A stretch of 64,000 bases of DNA from Candidatus Spyradenecus sp. (lineage in GTDB: Bacteria; Verrucomicrobiota; Verrucomicrobiia; Opitutales; UBA953), in NCBI GenBank assembly GCA_045651925.1, contig JAZRTJ010000084.1, positions 12,286 to 76,285 of the forward strand, in the 5' to 3' direction. Both the position numbers and the translations under genes were made by a program. Numbering within the stretch: position 1 is the first letter of the stretch; each line of letters begins with the position of its first letter. Positions 256 through 11,922 of the stretch are shown in pieces. The notes beneath the pieces were generated by a model that saw only the letters and a list, made by a program, of their open reading frames with translations, made no database searches and was not told the DNA's origin.

Positions 256-813
256 TTAGTTGGCAGCGTTTCCGTCAACGACGATAACTTTGCGGTCTTC
301 GGCGACTTCCGCGCGGGTACCGCCCTGAGTCGCGAATTGCTCGCCCATCGCCTGGATCTGCGCGCTCTGGGCGCCGCCGATTTGGTTCAGGTACTTCTTG
401 ACGGATTGTGCACGCTTGTCGGAGAGCGCAAGATTGTATTCTTCCGTGCCGATATGGTCGGTGTAGCCGACAATGTAGATGTTGCTGCCGCGGGTGTTGC
501 CGGCAATCGCGTCGAGCTTCGCACGCCCTTCGGCATCTACCGAGAACTTGTCGAATCCGAAGTAAACCGTGCAGAGCTTGGCCTCTTCCGGAATCGAGTT
601 GGTGGCAAACCATTCCGCGACCTTTTCGTCCGTCGTGCGGGTATCGCGATCGGCGAGAACGTCTTCGCCGGCAAGCTTGCCGGAATCGACTTCAGAGATT
701 CCGCCCTGATCGCCGGTCGTGTATTTAAAGTTGTCTTCCGGTCCGCGCTTCGGCGTACAAGCGACAACGGCGAGCGAGGCGAGAAGGATGAGTGCGGTTT
801 TGATGGAATTCAT
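256..813 (-). CDS. OmpA/Pal-family peptidoglycan-associated lipoprotein
   Basis: Lipobox LAVVAC; OmpA C-terminal motifs VYFGFDK, VGYTDHIGTEEYNLALSDKRA and DRKV. Start placed at MNSIK (ATG 813). Confidence 0.9.
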   Translation of the reverse strand: MNSIKTALILLASLAVVACTPKRGPEDNFKYTTGDQGGISEVDSGKLAGEDVLADRDTRTTDEKVAEWFATNSIPEEAKLCTVYFGFDKFSVDAEGRAKLDAIAGNTRGSNIYIVGYTDHIGTEEYNLALSDKRAQSVKKYLNQIGGAQSAQIQAMGEQFATQGGTRAEVAEDRKVIVVDGNAAN

Positions 814-908
814 GGTTGCTTTTCTCTCTATATTATGAATTGGGAAAATGAAATGACAAAGCGCTCTTTCCCGCAAGCGGAAAGTGAGGCGCAGGCGGGG
901 CCTGCGCC

Positions 909-1397
909 AATTGCAAATTTCGAATTCCGAATGATTAAGGGGTTTTCTGCGAAAAAGATTAAAGATTAGAGGTTAAAGATTAAAGAAGCTCCGGCGAAAC
1001 CGGAGATAGGTAACACTCAAAAGGGAATGGGTAGTGGATAACTGATAACGGATAGGTTTCTCTGCAAAAAAGATTAAAGGTTATGAAACTAGCCCCGTTT
1101 GGAGGGGTGGAAAGAAGTTTTAAAGAGAGGGGCATTACGTGCTTTGGGGTGATTCCCGTGGAACGGGAATACATAGGATAACCGCGGGTGCAGGCAATAG
1201 CCGCAACCCGCGGAAGGGCGCCAGCGAATCATGCGCCGCTAAACGACCTCGATATGTCCCCGGCCTACCTGCGGCGCAATGGAACAAGCTACAAAAAGCG
1301 CTCCCGCCAACCAGCGCTCTTTAAGCTTTAAGCCCTAATCTTTAAGCTTTCTATCCGCTATCACTCTTTCGCGGTACGCATTCGAAATTCGCTATTC
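909..1397. repeat. Cluster of heptamer short-tandem-repeat arrays in nested inverted pairs
   Basis: GAATTCC-type at 909-935 (+) and 1377-1397 (-); AAAGATT/AAAGCTT-type at about 954-985 (+) and 1320-1350 (-); GATAAC-type at about 1037-1055 (+) and 1341-1354 (-). Confidence 0.7.
1082..1287 (+). repeat. Multi-hairpin dispersed repeat (REP/REPIN-like or ncRNA), copy 1, modules A-B-C
   Basis: Closely similar in inverted orientation to 5757-5960. Modules B-C also occur at 5591-5706 and module C at 5301-5356. Stems are CCGCGGGT..ACCCGCGG and TGCGCCGC..GCGGCGCA. Confidence 0.85.
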
Positions 1398-1561
1398 ATG
1401 CCGAAGGCACCGGACCGGTCCGAAAAAATATCCTTTATTTTAAGCGCCCGCATAAGCGTCACCGAAATTTTTTATTGACCTCAATTTTTCGCAGCGCGAC
1501 AATTTTTTCAAAATTACCCATACCCTTTTTTACCCAAGTTTTAAATTATTACTCGTTTGCT

Positions 1562-4500
1562 ATGAAGACTTCAAAATTCTTCTTCTCTACCCTCATTGCT
1601 GCCGCAGCCATGACCGCAAGTGCGTATGCGGCTACGTGGGAAACCGACGAAAGCGGCCTTCCTGTTGTTGTAGACTTCAGTGAAAAATCGGCCAATGCGT
1701 CTTCGGGGCAGCAAACCATCGACGCGGATACGGTATTTACCTTTAATACTGCAGGGAATGTTGGCATTGCTAATAATGACCCTACACAGGGATTTAATAC
1801 CAATGGGTACAATTTAGCTCTTCAAGCTGACGAGAAGGAGATGTTTATCAATGGAACGTTTCTTGGGAACGGGAATATCTACTTTGCGTCCGGACGTTGG
1901 CAGGCGCAAGTATCTGATACGTTTGTAAATATTGGAGAAATTTATGTCTCGGGAAATACTCAACTTCAGTTGAGTAACACGCAGGCGATTTCTGGAAATG
2001 TCTTTCTTGGAACAACGACATTTAAAACAGACGGAAATCTTACCAATGCGGCACTTCGTGTTGGTGTTGGAGGTCGCCACGTGAATGTGACTCTTGACGG
2101 GACAACAACGATTTTTTCTGATACGAAGATTGGTTATCAAAACTCTTCCACGCTAAATATTTCGAATCTCACGGGAACGGGTAATATTGCGACGGGGATT
2201 TGGGACGGGAATAATACGTTAAATATTAACGGCTCTACGAGCTTTACAGGTTCGATTGATGTTGTTTCCGGTATTACTTTGAACTGGAAGGATGCAAATG
2301 GTAGTTTTGGCGGACTTTCTGGGAACGGGGCTGTTGGCGGTGGAAGCATGCTTAATCTTGTGCTAGGAGATGGGGTAAGAAAAGACTTTTCTGGGACTGT
2401 TGGGGGCGTGGATTCCGCAGTTAATCTGAATATTTCCGGTACGGGAACACAGGCGTTTACGGGAGCAACTTATTTGGGCGAGGTTGCCAATTCTGGGAAT
2501 TTGGTACTTGGTGGGACTGTTTCGCTTTCTTCTGCGATTACCAATACGGGAATAATCACCCTCAATGATGCTGTTATTTTTGATCTTGGACAATTCAATC
2601 TCGCTTCTGGGGATAATGTGATTATTTCAGGAGGCACAATTACTCCCGGTTTGGGGAAGGGTAATTTCCAAAATATTGGCGTGATGCGCGGCGGGTCGTT
2701 TTCCGTTAATTCTACGACGTCGTCTCTTTCTCTCACACTTACGCAGGGCGTTGCCGGGACTCTCGCATGGAGTGGCGTAGCAGGTGCGGTGTGGAATACG
2801 AGCACGGATAATGACAGCGTCTGGACTCTTAGCGGAGGAGAAACTTCGTCTTTCTACTTTAAGGACAATGTTATTTTCGATGCTAGCGCGACCAACAAGA
2901 CAGTGAAGCTTGAGTCCGGAAATACGGTTACAGTGGGAACTGCTACGGTATCGGGAGGTCGATACATCTGGGATGTTCAGGGAGGAACGAAGCCTGCAGT
3001 TGTCTCTGGCTCTACGCTCACAATTGATGGTGGAGCGACGCTCCGTATTGGGAATGATACTACCGTCGCTGGCAATCGTGTGGAGCTTTCGTTTGACGAG
3101 ATCATTCTTGGAGGTGTTCTAGAGTACAACTCTCAAGGAACGACAACATGGTCGTCTCTCGAATTCAAGGAAGGAGGAAATTTGCATATTGTCGATGCGA
3201 CAGGGGGGACTCCGCAGTTGACGATTGATTCTGTTTCGGTTAGCGGAAATGCGACGATTACTTCTGCGGCAGATAAATCTCTCCAGATTAACGCTCTTTC
3301 TGGTGATAAGAATCTTACTGTTACGGGTGCGAATGCATGGGGAGAGCAGAAATTGATCTTGGGGAGCTTGTCGGACTATTCGGGTACATTGACACTGAAC
3401 GACGGAATATACGGGCTAGGTGTTAGTATCAACACCAAAGATATTGGAACCACGGCTAAAGTTGTTATCAACGACGGTGTTGTACTTGCTGCAACTTCTT
3501 CTGCTGGGCAAAACACAACGGTAGATATGTCCAACGTTTCTGGGACAGGGACAGTTTTGTTGAAGCTCAAAGCTGATAATGGTGCTGGGTTTAATCTTTC
3601 CAACTTTGCGGGTACGATTGAAGTTGATAATGCAGACGGGCAAGGGTCTGGTCGCTTGCAATTGAATACGTCAACCTTGAATACTTCTTCATTGATCAAA
3701 GTTCTCGATGGTGGGCAACTCGTATTTGATGATAATTCAAATAAGGATGTCTCCAACGATATTACGGTTTTAGCGAACTCGACGATTCATGTGAACACCG
3801 GTTGCTTGGGGACGCTTTCTGGGGCAATTAACGCCACGGGAACGGTTACCAAAGCAGGAGCAGGGACACTGACTCTCACGGGAGAAGCAAATATTGCGAA
3901 AATTGCTGTTGACACAGGGACACTGAATGTAGGCAATGGTGGCGTTTTGACTGTTACCGGTGACGATAATGGAACATCTGAAATTTCCGGCACCCTTAAT
4001 GTTACTGGCGGAGGAACTCTCAAGTTTGGAGGGCACGATGCGCTTGGGTATAACAACCGTAATGCGTCCGGAACGATTATCGCACAGGGAGCTTCCTCTG
4101 AAAAATTGGCTACAATCCTTTTCAATGATACAGGAAAGCTTACACTGTCCAAAGAAATTCAGCTGAAAGGAAACACTGTTGTCAAAAATGCGGACGGGAA
4201 TTCAAATAGCATCAAGGCATTTGGAGGTCAGTTTACGGCATCGGGAGCGAACAATACAATTTCCACTGCGTTTGATATGTCCGAAGGGAAGGTTGATTTC
4301 AGTGTCGTCCAAGATGGTTCTCTGACGGTTGACAGCGTGATTTCCGGAAGTAAATCATGGGACAAACTTGGTGATGGAACGTTGACGCTCAAGGGGAATA
4401 ATTCCTCTTATTCGGGAACAATCACTGTTTCTGCGGGAACGGTGGTTGCGGCTCATAAGAATGCACTCGGAAGCGGGAATGTGACGGTGGGTGTGGAAAA

Positions 4501-5221
4501 GATTTCTAGTGACTTGCCGTATGCTCCGACGTTGAATCTTGGTGCCGGAGAGGTCGTGGTCAATAATTTGAATGGTTATGGTGACATCTGCTTGGCTGAC
4601 GGGGTGGATGCTTCGACGCTAACGATTAATTCCACTGTAGATACTTCTTTTGAAGGGAATATTTATCCCGCCGCGTTGGATGATAGCAGTACGATCGGGC
4701 GTACGATATCGCTTGTCAAGACCGGTGACAAAGCGTTTACGCTTAACAGTATGTTTAATGCGTTAGATTTGGTTACGGTTAAAGAGGGGACATTGGCACT
4801 GACTGCGTATTCTGTCGGGTACGGATCAAGTGTCGCAGACGTGAAAGTCGAAGGCGGAGCAACACTGAAGGTCATTACGGGGGGAGTCACGACTGGCGCT
4901 CTCAGTTTTGATGCGGGAGCAACATTCGCACTTGATCTTACTTTATTTGGAGTTTCGTCCGACGCAGAGGAAACGCCTTTGTGCATCATCAGTGCGTCTG
5001 CGCTTACTTTCAATGGGGTGGACGCGGCTACAATGAGCTCTGAGGAAATTGACAGCTATCTTGATTTGGATAATTCCGCTCTTGGGCTTTACGCGAATAA
5101 TCGTGTGTGGTCATATGCTGACGGGATGCTGACGCTTGCGATTCCGGAGCCGTCGATGTTCGGCTTGTTGGCGGGCTTGGGTGCGTTGGCTTTGGCCGGT
5201 ACGCGTCGCCGCCGCAAGTAA
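1562..5221 (+). CDS. Large secreted adhesin-like protein with autotransporter-associated beta-strand repeats and a C-terminal PEP-CTERM sorting signal
   Basis: Signal peptide MKTSKFFFSTLIAAAAMTASAYA; repeats TKAGAGTLTLTG and KLGDGTLTLKGNNSSYSGTITVSAGT; C-terminus IPEPSMFGLLAGLGALALAGTRRRRK. Visibly AT-richer than flanking genes. Confidence 0.9.
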   Translation: MKTSKFFFSTLIAAAAMTASAYAATWETDESGLPVVVDFSEKSANASSGQQTIDADTVFTFNTAGNVGIANNDPTQGFNTNGYNLALQADEKEMFINGTFLGNGNIYFASGRWQAQVSDTFVNIGEIYVSGNTQLQLSNTQAISGNVFLGTTTFKTDGNLTNAALRVGVGGRHVNVTLDGTTTIFSDTKIGYQNSSTLNISNLTGTGNIATGIWDGNNTLNINGSTSFTGSIDVVSGITLNWKDANGSFGGLSGNGAVGGGSMLNLVLGDGVRKDFSGTVGGVDSAVNLNISGTGTQAFTGATYLGEVANSGNLVLGGTVSLSSAITNTGIITLNDAVIFDLGQFNLASGDNVIISGGTITPGLGKGNFQNIGVMRGGSFSVNSTTSSLSLTLTQGVAGTLAWSGVAGAVWNTSTDNDSVWTLSGGETSSFYFKDNVIFDASATNKTVKLESGNTVTVGTATVSGGRYIWDVQGGTKPAVVSGSTLTIDGGATLRIGNDTTVAGNRVELSFDEIILGGVLEYNSQGTTTWSSLEFKEGGNLHIVDATGGTPQLTIDSVSVSGNATITSAADKSLQINALSGDKNLTVTGANAWGEQKLILGSLSDYSGTLTLNDGIYGLGVSINTKDIGTTAKVVINDGVVLAATSSAGQNTTVDMSNVSGTGTVLLKLKADNGAGFNLSNFAGTIEVDNADGQGSGRLQLNTSTLNTSSLIKVLDGGQLVFDDNSNKDVSNDITVLANSTIHVNTGCLGTLSGAINATGTVTKAGAGTLTLTGEANIAKIAVDTGTLNVGNGGVLTVTGDDNGTSEISGTLNVTGGGTLKFGGHDALGYNNRNASGTIIAQGASSEKLATILFNDTGKLTLSKEIQLKGNTVVKNADGNSNSIKAFGGQFTASGANNTISTAFDMSEGKVDFSVVQDGSLTVDSVISGSKSWDKLGDGTLTLKGNNSSYSGTITVSAGTVVAAHKNALGSGNVTVGVEKISSDLPYAPTLNLGAGEVVVNNLNGYGDICLADGVDASTLTINSTVDTSFEGNIYPAALDDSSTIGRTISLVKTGDKAFTLNSMFNALDLVTVKEGTLALTAYSVGYGSSVADVKVEGGATLKVITGGVTTGALSFDAGATFALDLTLFGVSSDAEETPLCIISASALTFNGVDAATMSSEEIDSYLDLDNSALGLYANNRVWSYADGMLTLAIPEPSMFGLLAGLGALALAGTRRRRK

Positions 5222-5227
5222 GAGAAT

Positions 5228-5356
5228 AAAGCTTAAAGTTTAGGGCTTAAGGCTTAAAGAAGGGCGCTCTCGCTGTTTGGCGGGAGCGCTTTTTTGTGGC
5301 TTGTTTCATTGCGTCGCAGGCGGGTCAGGGCGTGCCTGAGTCCGTGAGCGGCGCAC
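5228..5356 (-). repeat. Inverted copy of 1230-1350 (module C, terminator-like hairpin and heptamer array)
   Basis: Its reverse complement GTGCGCCGC..CTGCGACGCAATGAAACAAGCCACAAAAAAGCGCTCCCGCCAAACAGCG..TTTAAGCCTTAAGCCCTAAACTTTAAGCTTT aligns with 1231-1350. It includes the probable terminator GGGCGCTCTCGC..GCGGGAGCGCTTTTTT at 5262-5295. Confidence 0.8.
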
Positions 5357-5505
5357 GGCCTCGAAGAGTCAATTGCGAATAGCGAATTCCGAATGCGTAC
5401 CACGAAAGTGATAACTGATAGTTGATAACGCATAAGTAAAAAGGCCGCAGCGCGAATAAGCTCCAAGCATCAAACATCGAGCATCAAGACAGCGTTAATC
5501 ATTAA

Positions 5506-6037
5506 GGCTACCTCGAGAAATTCAGTTTTTAGGGCATTGTCCTAAATTCCCTTCTTTCCACCTGTCAGAATCTGTGCTCCGGAGGTGCACTACATTGGAT
5601 AACCGCGGGTGCAGGCAATAGCCGAAACCCGCGGACAGGCCTCCGGCCCCATGCGCCGCTAAGTGACTTCGATCGCTCTCCGACCTGCCTGCGGCGCAAT
5701 GGAACAGACAGAAAAGAAATTAAAGAGACTCCGGTTTTGGTAATATCCGTCCATATTGTTCCATGCGCCGCAGGAAAATCAAAGACGTAGCTATGTCTTC
5801 AAGCGGCGCTTCTTACCTTTGGCAAATCCGCGGGTTGCGGCTATTGCCTCCACCCGCGGTTATCCCATGTATTCCCGTTCCACGGGAATCACCCCAAAGC
5901 ACGTAATGTCCCTCTCTTTAAGACGTCTTTCCATCCCGCCAAACGGGGCTAGTTTCATACAAAAAAGAGCGTCTCGCTACCCCCGAGACGCTCTTTTTGT
6001 AATGGTTCCTCTAAAAAATGAATTTCTAGAGGTAGCC
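5506..6037. mobile_element. Non-autonomous MITE-like element, 532 bp, with 27-bp terminal inverted repeats and TTAA flanks
   Basis: Left TIR GGCTACCTCGAGAAATTCAGTTTTTAG (5506-5532) versus reverse complement of 6011-6037 GGCTACCTCTAGAAATTCATTTTTTAG, 2 mismatches. TTAA at 5502-5505 and 6038-6041. No convincing internal ORF. Confidence 0.7.
5591..5871. repeat. Inverted doublet of the B-C hairpin repeat (REPIN-like) inside the MITE
   Basis: TACATNGGATAACCGCGGG..GCGGCGCA(A)TGGAACA at 5591-5706 (+) and 5757-5871 (-), separated by about 50 nt. Confidence 0.8.
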
Positions 6038-6054
6038 TTAAGGGTTAAGACACG

Positions 6055-6093
6055 AAAAAAGCGTTCCCGTGAATTTCACGGGAACGCCTTTTT
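6055..6093. terminator. Bidirectional rho-independent terminator
   Basis: AAAAAAGCGTTCCCGTGAATTTCACGGGAACGCCTTTTTT, downstream of the toxin gene. Confidence 0.7.
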
Positions 6094-6109
6094 TGTGAGA
6101 AGGATGCGT

Positions 6110-6373
6110 TTAGTTATGTCCGTAATGTGTTTTACAGGAGATAATTTCGAGCGCGTCGGCGCTTGAGCGATAGACGATTCGGTCTCTGCTGTTTATGCGG
6201 CGGCTCCAATAGCCGGCTAAGTCATGTTTGAGCGGCTCGGGTTTTCCGTCTCCCTCATAGGGCGTTCTTACGCATTGTTTGATGAGACGCACAATTTTTT
6301 TGAAGGTCTTGGGGTCTATTTCATGCCACAGGGTAAATTCTTCCCATGCGGCATTGTGCCAGACAATTTTCAT
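6110..6373 (-). CDS. yoeB: Txe/YoeB family toxin
   Basis: MKIVW..AWEEF..W, PYEGDGKPEPLKHDLAGYWSRRINSRDRIVY and SCKTHY match YoeB motifs. Confidence 0.9.
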   Translation of the reverse strand: MKIVWHNAAWEEFTLWHEIDPKTFKKIVRLIKQCVRTPYEGDGKPEPLKHDLAGYWSRRINSRDRIVYRSSADALEIISCKTHYGHN

Positions 6374-6627
6374 AAATCTTCGAGCCGAGTTGTTCTGCGT
6401 TTGGCGGGAGTACGCATTTCAGCAATTCGCTTCTTGAGTTCATTGATATTTTCCGGGCTGTTAAACGGATCCGGGGCAGAAACAGAAAATGGAATTGCAC
6501 GATCTGCGAGGACGCGGTGGACGAAAATGCTGATTGCCGCGGAGGGGGTTATGCCGATTTCACGGCAAATGGTATTGAATCCGTCTCGGGTTGTTTTATC
6601 GATACGAACTGAAATTGTTGTTTCCAT
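6370..6627 (-). CDS. RelB/DinJ family antitoxin
   Basis: METTISVRID..ICREIGITPSAAISIF....IPF ribbon-helix-helix pattern; 4-nt overlap upstream of the toxin. Confidence 0.85.
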   Translation of the reverse strand: METTISVRIDKTTRDGFNTICREIGITPSAAISIFVHRVLADRAIPFSVSAPDPFNSPENINELKKRIAEMRTPAKRRTTRLEDL

Positions 6628-6767
6628 AGATGTAATATAAAATCGCCCTATTGTATTACGTCAATTGTGTTTTGTATTTCATTGCCACCGCTTTCTTTTT
6701 CTGCTCTCGGTTGACAATGCCTATCTGTTTGGTATTGTTTTTCGGCATGAGACGAGACCTACACCCT

Positions 6768-7712
6768 ATGGCGTTGTGCAATACGGCGCGCCTCGGCTTG
6801 GCGGCAATGCTGTTGTCCGCTTCCGCGCTTACGGCTTTTGCCGCAGAGGCGCGTACGATTTTTGCTCCCGGCGTTACGGAGACTTCCGGTTGGTATGATG
6901 TGAATAAAAAGAGCACGACGAGTCTGGCGACGAAAGATTTTCTTTTCTGCTGGGGCGCGGCCGCTTCGAACATGGCCCAATATTGGCAGGATTGTTACGT
7001 GAAGTCCGGGCATGATCTTCCGCCAAACGTGCCGAACGGGACGGCCTCCGCCTTGGGCTACGAGCTCGGAATCTTTGACGTGTTTTTGAACAACTGGTCT
7101 TCCGAGCGCGGGGCGGATCCGTATGTCGGGCTCATGTGGTATTTCAGCGGCGGCAGCCATTCGATGACAAATTATGCGAAACCGACTGCGGGGACGGGCG
7201 GCTACTGGAAGGATTCCTATGCCGCATTGCAGAGCGATTTGGGTAATAATTTCATTCTTCCGGAAGTCGGCGGCTACTCGACTTGGGGCGCGTGGGCGAA
7301 CGATCGATCACGGACGGCGCTTGAAATTTTTTCCGAACAGGCTGTTTCCGTTTTGAAAACCGGGGTTGCGAGCATCGCCGTAAAAACGGCGACAATCCTC
7401 CATGCGGTAACGCTCTGGGGCGTTGAGGTGGATGCGCTGGGAATCGTTACGGCCGCTTATATTACGGATTCGGACGACGCGGGGAAGACCGGACAAATTT
7501 CCGGTTTGAGAAAATACTCGCTGACGACCGATAGCATGAATCGGACCGTTTCCCTTTTGGGCACGGATTACGGGACGGTGAATATTACCAACCTCTACGG
7601 TCTGACGGCGTATCCGATTCCGGAGCCGTCGGTGTTCGGGGTGTCGGCAGGCGTGCTTGCGCTCGGCTTGGCCTTGTCGCGGAGGAAACTCCGCCGGGCG
7701 CGGGTTGCTTAG
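6768..7712 (+). CDS. IdeS/Mac-1 family cysteine endopeptidase with PEP-CTERM signal
   Basis: GWYDVNK, CWGAAASN (catalytic Cys), HAVTLWG (His) and ITDSDD (Asp); C-terminal IPEPSVFG..LALSRRKLRR; N-terminal signal peptide. Confidence 0.75.
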   Translation: MALCNTARLGLAAMLLSASALTAFAAEARTIFAPGVTETSGWYDVNKKSTTSLATKDFLFCWGAAASNMAQYWQDCYVKSGHDLPPNVPNGTASALGYELGIFDVFLNNWSSERGADPYVGLMWYFSGGSHSMTNYAKPTAGTGGYWKDSYAALQSDLGNNFILPEVGGYSTWGAWANDRSRTALEIFSEQAVSVLKTGVASIAVKTATILHAVTLWGVEVDALGIVTAAYITDSDDAGKTGQISGLRKYSLTTDSMNRTVSLLGTDYGTVNITNLYGLTAYPIPEPSVFGVSAGVLALGLALSRRKLRRARVA

Positions 7713-11455: not shown

Positions 11456-11922
11456 AATCTCAAATTTCGAATTCCGAATCCCGAATGCAATGACGGCAAG
11501 AGATGACAATGTAATTGAGAAGAAATCTTTTGCCTTTGCGGTTCGAATCGTACGTCTTTGTCGTTTTTTGAGGGAAAAGAAAAAGGAATTTGTGATTTCG
11601 GATCAGCTATTGCGCGCGGGAACCTCCGTCGGAGCGAATGTCACGGAGGCCCAGGAAGCGTTTTCCGAGAAGGATTTTGTAGCCAAGCTTTCGATTGCTC
11701 GAAAAGAGTCCGCAGAAAGTGCCTACTGGATTCGCTTGCTGTTTGAGACGGAATATCTTTCGCAGGAGCAATTTGATTCGATTTACGGAGATGCCGTTGA
11801 GATTCGAAAGATTCTTTCGTCGATTGTATTGACCATTGAGAAAAAGCAAAAACGAAATAAAGACGATGACTCAGCCGTTGAATGAAACTGAATTCGGAAT
11901 TCGGAATTCGGAATTCGAGATT
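11456..11922. mobile_element. Candidate small mobile unit: four-helix-bundle gene bounded by 33-bp inverted heptamer arms
   Basis: Left arm AATCTC-AAATTTC-GAATTCC-GAATCCC-GAATGC (11456-11488). Reverse complement of the right arm is AATCTC-GAATTCC-GAATTCC-GAATTCC-GAATTC (11890-11922). It sits between queD and queE. Confidence 0.6.
11490..11885 (+). CDS. Four helix bundle protein (TIGR02436 / 23S-IVP / bAvd-like)
   Basis: KSFAFAVRIVRL, QLLRAGTSVGANVTEA, DFVAKLSIARKESAESAYWIRLL. Confidence 0.9.
   Translation: MTARDDNVIEKKSFAFAVRIVRLCRFLREKKKEFVISDQLLRAGTSVGANVTEAQEAFSEKDFVAKLSIARKESAESAYWIRLLFETEYLSQEQFDSIYGDAVEIRKILSSIVLTIEKKQKRNKDDDSAVE

Follow-up and report, generated by a model that had tools for sequence, protein, structure and literature searches.

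We analysed a 64-kb stretch of DNA from Candidatus Spyradenecus sp. (contig JAZRTJ010000084.1; hereafter the window) and describe in it a family of intergenic repeats built around a core of 135–140 nt that is predicted to fold into a series of hairpins. The window contains three full copies and one truncated copy of this core, named c1–c4; related loci are named L001–L009, and further related contigs L130–L132. An earlier note, made from the sequence of the window, had placed four copies at 1082-1287 (+), 5301-5356 (−), 5591-5706 (+) and 5757-5960 (−), and all four are borne out, except that the third had been started too late: its hairpin A, which starts at 5574, was overlooked. A 28-nt pattern for the stem of hairpin B matches at 1176-1203 (+), 5597-5624 (+) and 5838-5865 (−) and never in 100 shuffles, and the 3′ motif CTGCGGCGCAATGGAACA is found three times, at 1269, at 5689 and, with two mismatches, at 5302 (−). 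A repeat finder run on the window recovers the same families. A covariance model built from 18 full copies recognises the core of c1 at 1149-1286 (+; 136.9 bits, E 1.5e-33), the truncated c2 at 5302-5402 (−; 23.4 bits, E 3e-4; nhmmer match 5296-5371), the canonical c3 at 5570-5706 (+; 151.1 bits, E 3e-37) and c4 (−; 134.5 bits, core 5757-5892), and finds no match in the other 58 kb of the window.

Copies c1 and c4 represent a long form, in which a 67-nt 5′ extension (1082-1148 (+) in c1, 5893-5960 in c4, which thus spans 5757-5960 (−)) precedes a core with a different hairpin A stem of the same 7 bp and GGA triloop. The extension of c1 recurs only in c4 and at the same locus of the 99%-identical strain L130, whose positions 1-96 align to window positions 1054-1149. 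The two copies make up the inverted repeat I1 (1082-1214 / 5827-5959; 133 nt, 95% complementary). Their identity is 97% up to and including hairpin B but falls to 55% in the linker and the apex of hairpin C, and they are therefore chimeric. Additionally, c4, which takes part in the inverted repeats I1 and I2, is convergent with c3, from which a gap of 50 nt separates it. In c2, an upstream module of the ATTCG type is fused directly to hairpin C, and the 3′ half of hairpin A, hairpin B and the linker are missing. Because the junction falls at the heptamer TGCGCCG that starts the 5′ arms of both hairpins A and C, c2 looks like a deletion by recombination between these two heptamers.

The core consists, in order, of hairpin A, the motif ACAUnGGAUAA, hairpin B, a linker of 16–19 nt, hairpin C and AAUGGAAC. 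Specifically, hairpin A comprises 7 bp and a GGA triloop (GAA in three copies), and its stem in c1 and c4 is UUCCCGU / ACGGGAA, unlike that of the other copies. Hairpin B is formed by CCGCGGGU / ACCCGCGG and is capped by a 3-bp apical stem with an AAUA loop, and hairpin C has a 7-bp closing stem, GCGCCGC / GCGGCGC, enclosing an apex of 31–32 nt. In c1 the elements lie on the + strand at 1153-1169 (hairpin A, 7 bp with GGA triloop), 1171-1181 (ACATAGGATAA), 1182-1213 (hairpin B), 1214-1232 (linker), 1233-1277 (hairpin C, apex 1240-1270) and 1278-1285 (AATGGAAC). The corresponding elements of c3, also on the + strand, are hairpin A at 5574-5590, ACATTGGATAA at 5592-5602, hairpin B at 5603-5634, the linker at 5635-5652, hairpin C at 5653-5697 and AATGGAAC at 5698-5705. 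Two similar motifs are single-stranded in this structure: CAnnGGAUAA separates hairpins A and B, and CAAUGGAAC follows hairpin C. GGA is present in the triloop of hairpin A, in ACAUnGGAUAA, in a GCGGA after hairpin B and in AAUGGAAC, and a conserved CGTAGG lies 3′ of many cores.

The alignment of the full copies agrees well with this structure: 95% of the cells pair, vs 29–47% when the 3′ partners are slid by 1–3 columns. Covariation in the stems is limited. Two of them, the lower one of hairpin B and the closing one of hairpin C, show none because they are invariant, which is uninformative for or against structure, and compensatory changes are seen in hairpin A and in the apex of hairpin B. 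Specifically, six of the seven pairs of hairpin A are changed on both sides in c1 and c4 with the GGA triloop kept, and GGC/GCC is replaced by GAC/GUC in the hairpin B apex of three copies. G-U pairs occupy 18 cells and A-C mismatches 4, mostly owing to one G-U pair of hairpin A that is kept in 12 of the 18 copies; this excess favours the view that the strand as written is the one that folds, whether as RNA or as single-stranded DNA. Folding energy was rejected as a means of choosing the functional strand, since both strands are about equally stable (z-scores of the cores −1.9 to −4.7 forward and −2.1 to −5.3 reverse). We observed that the linker of c3 contains CCUCCGG (5640-5646), complementary to CCGGAGG of its hairpin A (5581-5587), as do the copies of the same subfamily at L007:4869 and L009:5745. 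In the minimum-free-energy fold of c3 this pairing replaces hairpin A and encloses hairpin B; it is not family-wide, and could represent an alternative conformation. A mini open reading frame at the start of hairpin C (AUG-CGC-CGC-UAA) was discarded, as it is not conserved.

Next, we compared the segments of the core across the 18 full copies. Mean pairwise identity is 0.91–0.97 for the ACAUnGGAUAA motif, the lower stem of hairpin B and the 5′ arm of the C closing stem, 0.86 for the 3′ arm of that stem together with the 3′ tail including AAUGGAAC, 0.83 for the hairpin B apex (apical stem plus loop), 0.55 for the C apex and 0.40 for the linker. The lower stem of hairpin B almost never varies. 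The claim of hypervariable loops of fixed length holds for the length: the apex measures 31 nt in 13 copies and 32 nt in five, the linker 16–19 nt and the core 135–140 nt, so that loop length is constrained and does not vary freely. It does not hold for hypervariability, since about a third of the apex positions are fixed and the apexes fall into shared classes. Among the 13 class-1 apexes, T1, G6, A7, T14, T18, C19, G23, A24 and T27 are invariant or nearly so. A second class, AAAGUGACAGGG...CCCGUUUAC, has an internal hairpin of its own and an A-rich linker, and both classes recur in both of the genomes described below. The nearest relative of c3 is found in the other species (L007:4869-5005), with 92% identity overall and 84% in the apex. 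In about 8 of the 13 class-1 copies, the linker itself folds into a small hairpin. An apex that acts as a structured extension applies only to class 2 and c4, as class-1 apexes fold like shuffles (mean z −0.3). A diversity-generating retroelement was rejected as well, because the apex substitutions are of all types and not confined to adenines, and no reverse transcriptase is present among the checked neighbour genes. Judged by these alignments, the loops would be under relaxed sequence constraint with their length held, and no diversifying mechanism would be at work.

An exact-pattern scan of 185,579 species, each represented by one genome, found the family in two metagenome-assembled genomes (MAGs) only, 'Opitutales bacterium RGIG7497', from water-buffalo colon, and 'Ca. 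Spyradenecus sp.'. Nine loci of 3.7–8 kb each from these two MAGs, 68 kb in all, were searched with the nhmmer profile and the covariance model and contain 17 further copies, which brings the total to 21 copies in 136 kb. DapB of the window organism is 98% identical to that of RGIG7497, so that the two are the same species or nearly so; RGIG7497 and the Ca. Spyradenecus MAG are close relatives, with an orthologous AAA ATPase 85.5% identical in protein. The two MAGs carry labels of different phyla, Verrucomicrobiota for the Opitutales bacterium and Lentisphaerota for Ca. Spyradenecus, and at least one of these labels is probably wrong. Neither metagenome contigs nor viral contigs match the hairpin-B pattern, and plasmids have no match to the c3/c4 composite. 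A metagenome scan with the hairpin-C pattern was too loose to be used: its 120 loci (L010–L129) are chance matches, none of which is recognised by the nhmmer profile. In Rfam the family has no counterpart. The whole window yields only a tRNA at the gathering threshold, and the region 800-6300 searched against Rfam 15 at E up to 10 gives chance matches of 17–24 bits, against thresholds of 55–120; no match to the end of an insertion sequence (IS) was found either. In four bovine-gut DNA metagenome runs (summed contigs), the word depth over the core is 11–57 times that of adjacent single-copy genes, which implies tens of copies per genome-equivalent and suggests roughly 10–55 copies per genome. 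The family is restricted to a narrow clade of uncultured ruminant-gut bacteria of the Planctomycetes–Verrucomicrobia–Chlamydiae (PVC) group.

The cores are embedded in a mosaic of other short modules. In the 136 kb, the T module, 22 nt of sequence CTAAAAAAyGAATTTCTAGAGG, is found nowhere but next to cores. It lies directly downstream of them, inverted on their upstream side, or both, and therefore brackets them like terminal inverted repeats. In the window, a left inverted copy (5495-5532, −) and a right copy (6011-6048, +) form the inverted repeat I3 (38 nt, 89% complementary, 478 nt apart) around the convergent c3/c4 pair (5495-6048). A further convergent pair is bracketed in the same way in L003 (3655-4090), and single cores are bracketed in L002 (1633-1862) and L007 (3024-3263). 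Arrays with a period of 7 nt, of four kinds (TTAAAGn, GATAACn, ATTCGnn and GCATCAA) and 2.7–4.7 units each, lie in the two repeat-rich intergenic regions of the window, that of c1 and that of c2–c4. They are found next to cores in both MAGs as well, and frequently form inverted pairs around units. Around c1, Tandem Repeats Finder reports AAAGATT x4.7 at 954-986, which brackets the copy together with its inverted partner CTTTAAG x4.6 at 1319-1350 (I6, 33 nt, 88%), and GGATAAC x2.7 at 1036-1054, which recurs beside cores in L007. The array at 1319-1350 is also the inverted partner (I4) of TAAAGCT x4.7 at 5227-5259, which lies downstream of c2 on the c2 strand. The ATTCGnn-type array at 5371-5394 is the type-i module found upstream of many cores. 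CAAGCAT x3.6 at 5464-5488 belongs to a kind that in L009 and in a contig of metagenome X1 directly precedes a copy consisting of hairpin C alone. The copies reduced to hairpin C are c2 and L009:5629-5753. A period of 7 nt is odd for a protein that binds one face of double-stranded DNA.

Terminator-like hairpins lie 3′ of c1, c2 and several MAG copies, though only of some copies. The one just after c1 (1293-1320, +) has the form AGCGCT...AGCGCT followed by CTTT, and a sequence similar to it stands 3′ of c2 on the minus strand (5271-5294), the two making up the inverted repeat I8 (24 nt, 96% complementary). Metagenome contigs break and rejoin at the borders of the modules, namely at 987, 1032, 1318, 1350, 5574, 6010 and 6042, with the breaks around the array 1319-1350 falling at 1317/1318 and 1348-1352. 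Multi-copy, intergenic, assembled from few modules in variable combination and endowed with stable predicted hairpins, the family has the properties by which mosaic interspersed repeats are recognised.

All copies are intergenic, and their neighbour genes are unrelated to one another: they encode GroEL, superoxide dismutase, DapB, MgsA, an Mrp/NUBPL ATPase, polysaccharide synthesis and glycosyltransferase proteins, a serine dehydratase, PEP-CTERM proteins and one tyrosine recombinase, and include no transposase. The orientation of the copies relative to the flanking genes is mixed, with some antisense to both neighbours (L008). A role as leader or riboswitch is excluded because of this mixed orientation, and the gene distances are inconsistent and the neighbours unrelated as well. 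None of the window copies has a sigma-70-like promoter upstream, though a good one lies before the adjacent OmpA-family gene, and c4 is directly preceded by a terminator. The tyrosine recombinase gene (L002 2306-3667, +) is next to a core copy, and synteny with the Spyradenecus locus breaks off there. An association of the family with this integrase was rejected, as about 60 kb around three homologues of it in four loci of relatives (L133–L136) contain no cores.

The c1/c4 inverted repeats (1082-1214 and 5827-5959) bracket the gene 1475-5221 (+), which encodes a 1248-aa PATR/PEP-CTERM surface protein. Its depth in the metagenomes is mostly zero or low where the flanking genes are deep (in X1, about 140 for the flanks vs 0–12 for the gene), and it is thus strain-variable; it may be an invertible or exchangeable cassette.

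Variation between strains and species falls close to the repeats. The AAA-ATPase orthologues at L004:7055 and L002:1-1419 share a promoter-proximal stretch of about 93% identity, and a core upstream of each points at the gene. Nevertheless, the two cores differ in subfamily, in upstream module and in junction: they join the conserved promoter-proximal sequence 4 nt from T in one species and about 105 nt in the other, and a third lineage shows yet another junction. Position 6704 marks a break in synteny with the contig L131: to its right the two sequences are 90% identical, and to its left, on the side of the repeats, they are unrelated. An 85-nt segment, 969-1053, is absent from the 99%-identical L130 and sits between 29-nt direct repeats at 940-968 and 1055-1083 (start-to-start 115 nt). 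This segment holds a CTCCGG-cgaaa-CCGGAG hairpin and most of the GATAACn-type array, and matching 'skips 44/45' joints occur in two metagenomes. Left of the 6704 breakpoint, L131 (1-4578) carries, in place of the repeats and the PEP-CTERM gene, a gene for an SMC_N/AAA_15/AAA_21 ATPase and a DUF3226 gene, a possible defence pair. On the window side of this comparison, about 6049-6704, the open reading frame 6224-6640 lacks both a Pfam match and any depth in runs X2 and X3.

Taken together, we consider it rather probable that the cores are a family, undescribed so far, of small structured mosaic repeats that are interspersed, non-coding and non-autonomous and belong to the kind represented by miniature inverted-repeat transposable elements (MITEs), bacterial interspersed mosaic elements (BIMEs) and BOX elements. 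In the mechanism that we propose, transposition, and recombination at the invariant segments, would spread or exchange the copies. Hairpin B, the C closing stem and the two GGA motifs would be held constant, probably as recognition sites of a trans-acting protein, which may be a transposase, a recombinase or, in the case of co-transcription of the element, an RNA-binding protein. The linker and the C apex would change by drift, held to their length and, weakly, to their structure, and recombination between copies would reshuffle them; constant recognition segments beside a drifting linker and apex would then account for the look of a fixed scaffold with a variable insert. An effect on the host may arise through RNA or DNA structure in untranslated regions, by termination or transcript stability, as in other repeat families. 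The invariant 44-nt region around hairpin B is identical across the species whose orthologous protein is 85.5% identical, and something therefore presumably recognises this segment in a sequence-specific manner.

Several points weigh against this interpretation. The identity of the 44-nt region points to selection for a function in the host or of the RNA no less than to recognition by a transposase, and the G-U excess (18 vs 4) together with the terminator-like hairpins would fit independent small-RNA genes too. At the ends of the units, which merge into TTAAAG-type arrays, we found no consistent direct repeat that could be a target-site duplication, and the available DNA holds no autonomous element or parent IS with matching ends. 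About half of the cores, those of type i, have no upstream T copy, so terminal inverted repeats are not universal. Metagenome contigs compared with the window and with L002 gave no clean empty site to set against a filled one, because contigs break at the repeats, and mobility itself was not seen. Finally, the 18 full copies come from two to three close genomes and form a small, related sample.

The strongest competitor, which we regard as unlikely, is a multigene family of trans-acting small RNAs, in which each core would be transcribed on its own, the scaffold would bind a common protein, and the apex and linker would confer specificity. The scaffold, hairpin B with the two CAnnGGA motifs, could then serve as a sponge for a protein of the CsrA/RsmA type or as a partner of another RNA chaperone, with the apex as a guide in the extreme case. 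As in CsrB/RsmZ-type sponges, several GGA motifs are exposed in loops or linkers: four are present here, two of them invariant in 18 of 18 copies. The consensus for CsrA binding obtained by systematic evolution of ligands by exponential enrichment (SELEX) is RUACARGGAUGU, which UACAUnGGAU resembles. Such RNA genes would also agree with the strand-specific G-U pair of hairpin A in 12 of 18 copies, the terminators after c1, c2 and several MAG copies, the fixed apex length of 31–32 nt, the conservation of apex subtypes between species (c3 vs L007:4869, 84% in the apex) and the presence of copies in metatranscriptome assemblies. However, no promoter-like site precedes any window copy, though sigma-70-like ones lie nearby, c4 follows right after a terminator, and 10–55 copies per genome are far above known families of sibling small RNAs. 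Truncated and chimeric copies and convergent pairs 22–50 nt apart are odd for genes, the family is confined to a very narrow clade, and the apexes have no complementary matches above shuffles in the 136 kb and none in phages. A tblastn search of about 165 kb, the DNA available for gene searches, with a csrA query found no csrA. In three RNA-labelled runs, whose contigs are unstranded and may include DNA carry-over, copies lie on contigs of up to 481–496 nt that run into the flanks. The copies reach a depth there about 4–20 times as high as the few window genes that are detectable, a factor close to the DNA copy ratio, and these runs show no sign of a hugely abundant discrete small RNA.

The earlier note had also offered a REP class (REP for repetitive extragenic palindrome) and its doublets, REPINs, serviced by a transposase of the RAYT (REP-associated tyrosine transposase) type. 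Part of this comparison stands, as the family is multi-copy, extragenic and hairpin-forming and includes three convergent doublets (window c3/c4, L003 and L005). The invariant stems suggest sequence-specific recognition, the G-U or G-T strand bias would fit a single-stranded DNA substrate, and the conserved CGTAGG after many cores points the same way. That a single-copy RAYT, a Y1 HUH transposase that recognises a hairpin on single-stranded DNA, mobilises the cores is nevertheless very unlikely. The unit is 135–140 nt long with three or four different hairpins and not a palindrome of 20–40 nt, the convergent pairs are three among 21 copies with the rest singlets or tandem, and the inverted T modules point rather to ends of the DDE type. 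Moreover, no Y1 or RAYT gene was found in the same 165 kb, a part of the genomes (tblastn with an IS200 TnpA query), or by Pfam among 20 neighbour genes.

The variable loops had further prompted the idea of guide RNAs, for which we found no support. Bridge RNAs of IS110 and omega RNAs of IS200/IS605 elements are encoded beside a recombinase or nuclease gene, and their variable parts match target or donor DNA. The present family resembles them only superficially, through conserved stems with variable segments of fixed length. Unlike the bridge RNAs and the omega RNAs of TnpB and IscB, the cores have housekeeping genes as neighbours, with no recombinase or nuclease gene nearby, a third of their loop positions are fixed, and complementary targets are missing. 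The longest matches of the loops in the 136 kb, a small fraction of the genome, are 10–12 nt and thus at about the level of shuffled controls, and all 18 C apexes searched against phage genomes gave no match. We therefore give very little credence to the view that the cores are 10–55 paralogous structured RNAs with an invariant protein-binding scaffold, composed of hairpin B, a hairpin with a GNA triloop and two CAnnGGA motifs, whose apex, with about 17 free positions of 31, would guide an effector encoded elsewhere; if true, this would be an RNA-programmed system without a known relative.

Least probable of all is that the T-bracketed units are invertons, flipped by a recombinase and carrying in the core a promoter or leader for surface-protein genes (PEP-CTERM, IdeS/Mac): inverted repeats of 22–38 nt do flank segments of 190–480 nt, units do lie upstream of surface genes (c1; L009:5745 before a Laminin_G/PEP-CTERM gene; c3/c4 before Mac-1) and many 'opposite strands' joints occur in metagenome contigs, but these joints miss the inner edges of T (5564|6010, not 5532|6010) and are better explained by other mosaic loci, many units flank housekeeping genes (GroEL, MgsA, AAA ATPase), half of the cores have one T copy only, and no recombinase is consistently nearby.

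With the interspersed-repeat interpretation preferred, we compared the family with known repeats of this kind. BIMEs of E. coli are likewise intergenic, present in tens of copies or more and built of conserved hairpin modules in alternating orientation, with other short motifs in variable order; they sit in transcribed or terminator regions, as the present family may too. They differ in that their REP unit measures about 35 nt, as opposed to a 135-nt array of three or four different hairpins, and in that the present family has period-7 arrays and the 22-nt T module, no known link to a RAYT, integration host factor (IHF) or gyrase, and hosts in the PVC group, not in Enterobacteria. BOX elements of S. 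pneumoniae, which are found with RUP and SPRITE, are regarded by Croucher et al. 2011 (PMC3049150) as largely parasitic, slow to insert anew and able to affect co-transcribed genes; like the present family, they are modular, intergenic, restricted to one species and its nearest relatives, and extensive in predicted structure. They have no sequence relationship to it, their modules A, B and C differ in size and order, and their transcription has been demonstrated. REPINs are, according to Bertels and Rainey 2011 (PMC3116915), extragenic repeats whose inverted doublets are predicted to fold into hairpins as single-stranded DNA or as mRNA, with subfamily populations within a genome, features which the present family shares. 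In REPINs, however, the REP is a short palindrome and the doublet the replicative unit, whereas doublets are in the minority here. Reviews by Delihas (PMC2229807 and PMC3184786) deal with bacterial MITEs. MITEs such as Correia and ERIC/RU-1 are similar in being non-coding, multi-copy and intergenic, with about 100–300 bp and long RNA folds when transcribed, and to their terminal inverted repeats the inverted T pairs around part of the present copies may correspond. They differ from the present family in that its inverted repeats are missing from about half of the copies, its interior is far more conserved than its ends, and neither a target-site duplication nor a parent IS was found in the available DNA.

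The family is thus well defined, new as a sequence family and elaborate in structure, yet of a familiar kind. Small interspersed repeats are well described in Proteobacteria and Firmicutes. We know of no description for PVC bacteria, and a full-text literature search found none. The family would add an unusually large and elaborately folded example. The repeats break MAG assemblies, as contigs of related strains in Logan end at them (for example L130), and they flag the variable stretches around surface-protein genes. As a marker, their sequence could be used to type strains of this ruminant-gut lineage, and naming the partner of the 44-nt segment, be it a transposase, a recombinase or an RNA-binding protein, would tell selfish from co-opted elements.

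Further genes of the window lie to the right of the repeats. The gene 6651-7712 (+) encodes a homologue of the IdeS/Mac-1 family of cysteine endopeptidases with a PEP-CTERM-like C-terminal sequence, which resembles that of the 1248-aa protein (direct repeat D2, 5121-5197 / 7597-7673). IdeS/Mac homologues are numerous in ruminant-gut PVC and Alistipes MAGs. Farther downstream, the gene 11490-11885 (+) encodes a 131-aa, Avd-like four-helix bundle protein of the 23S_rRNA_IVP family (PF05635, E 1.3e-28). Around it, as read from synteny with L131/L132 at a coordinate offset, are PTPS and Radical_SAM genes, which we take to be queD-like and queE-like, respectively. The 131-aa gene is flanked by two inverted arrays, (AATTCCG)x3.4 at 11463-11486 and a perfect (GAATTCG)x4 at 11890-11917. 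Because the same ATTCG-type array is the upstream module of many cores, these arrays may be junction marks of mobile cassettes in this genome.

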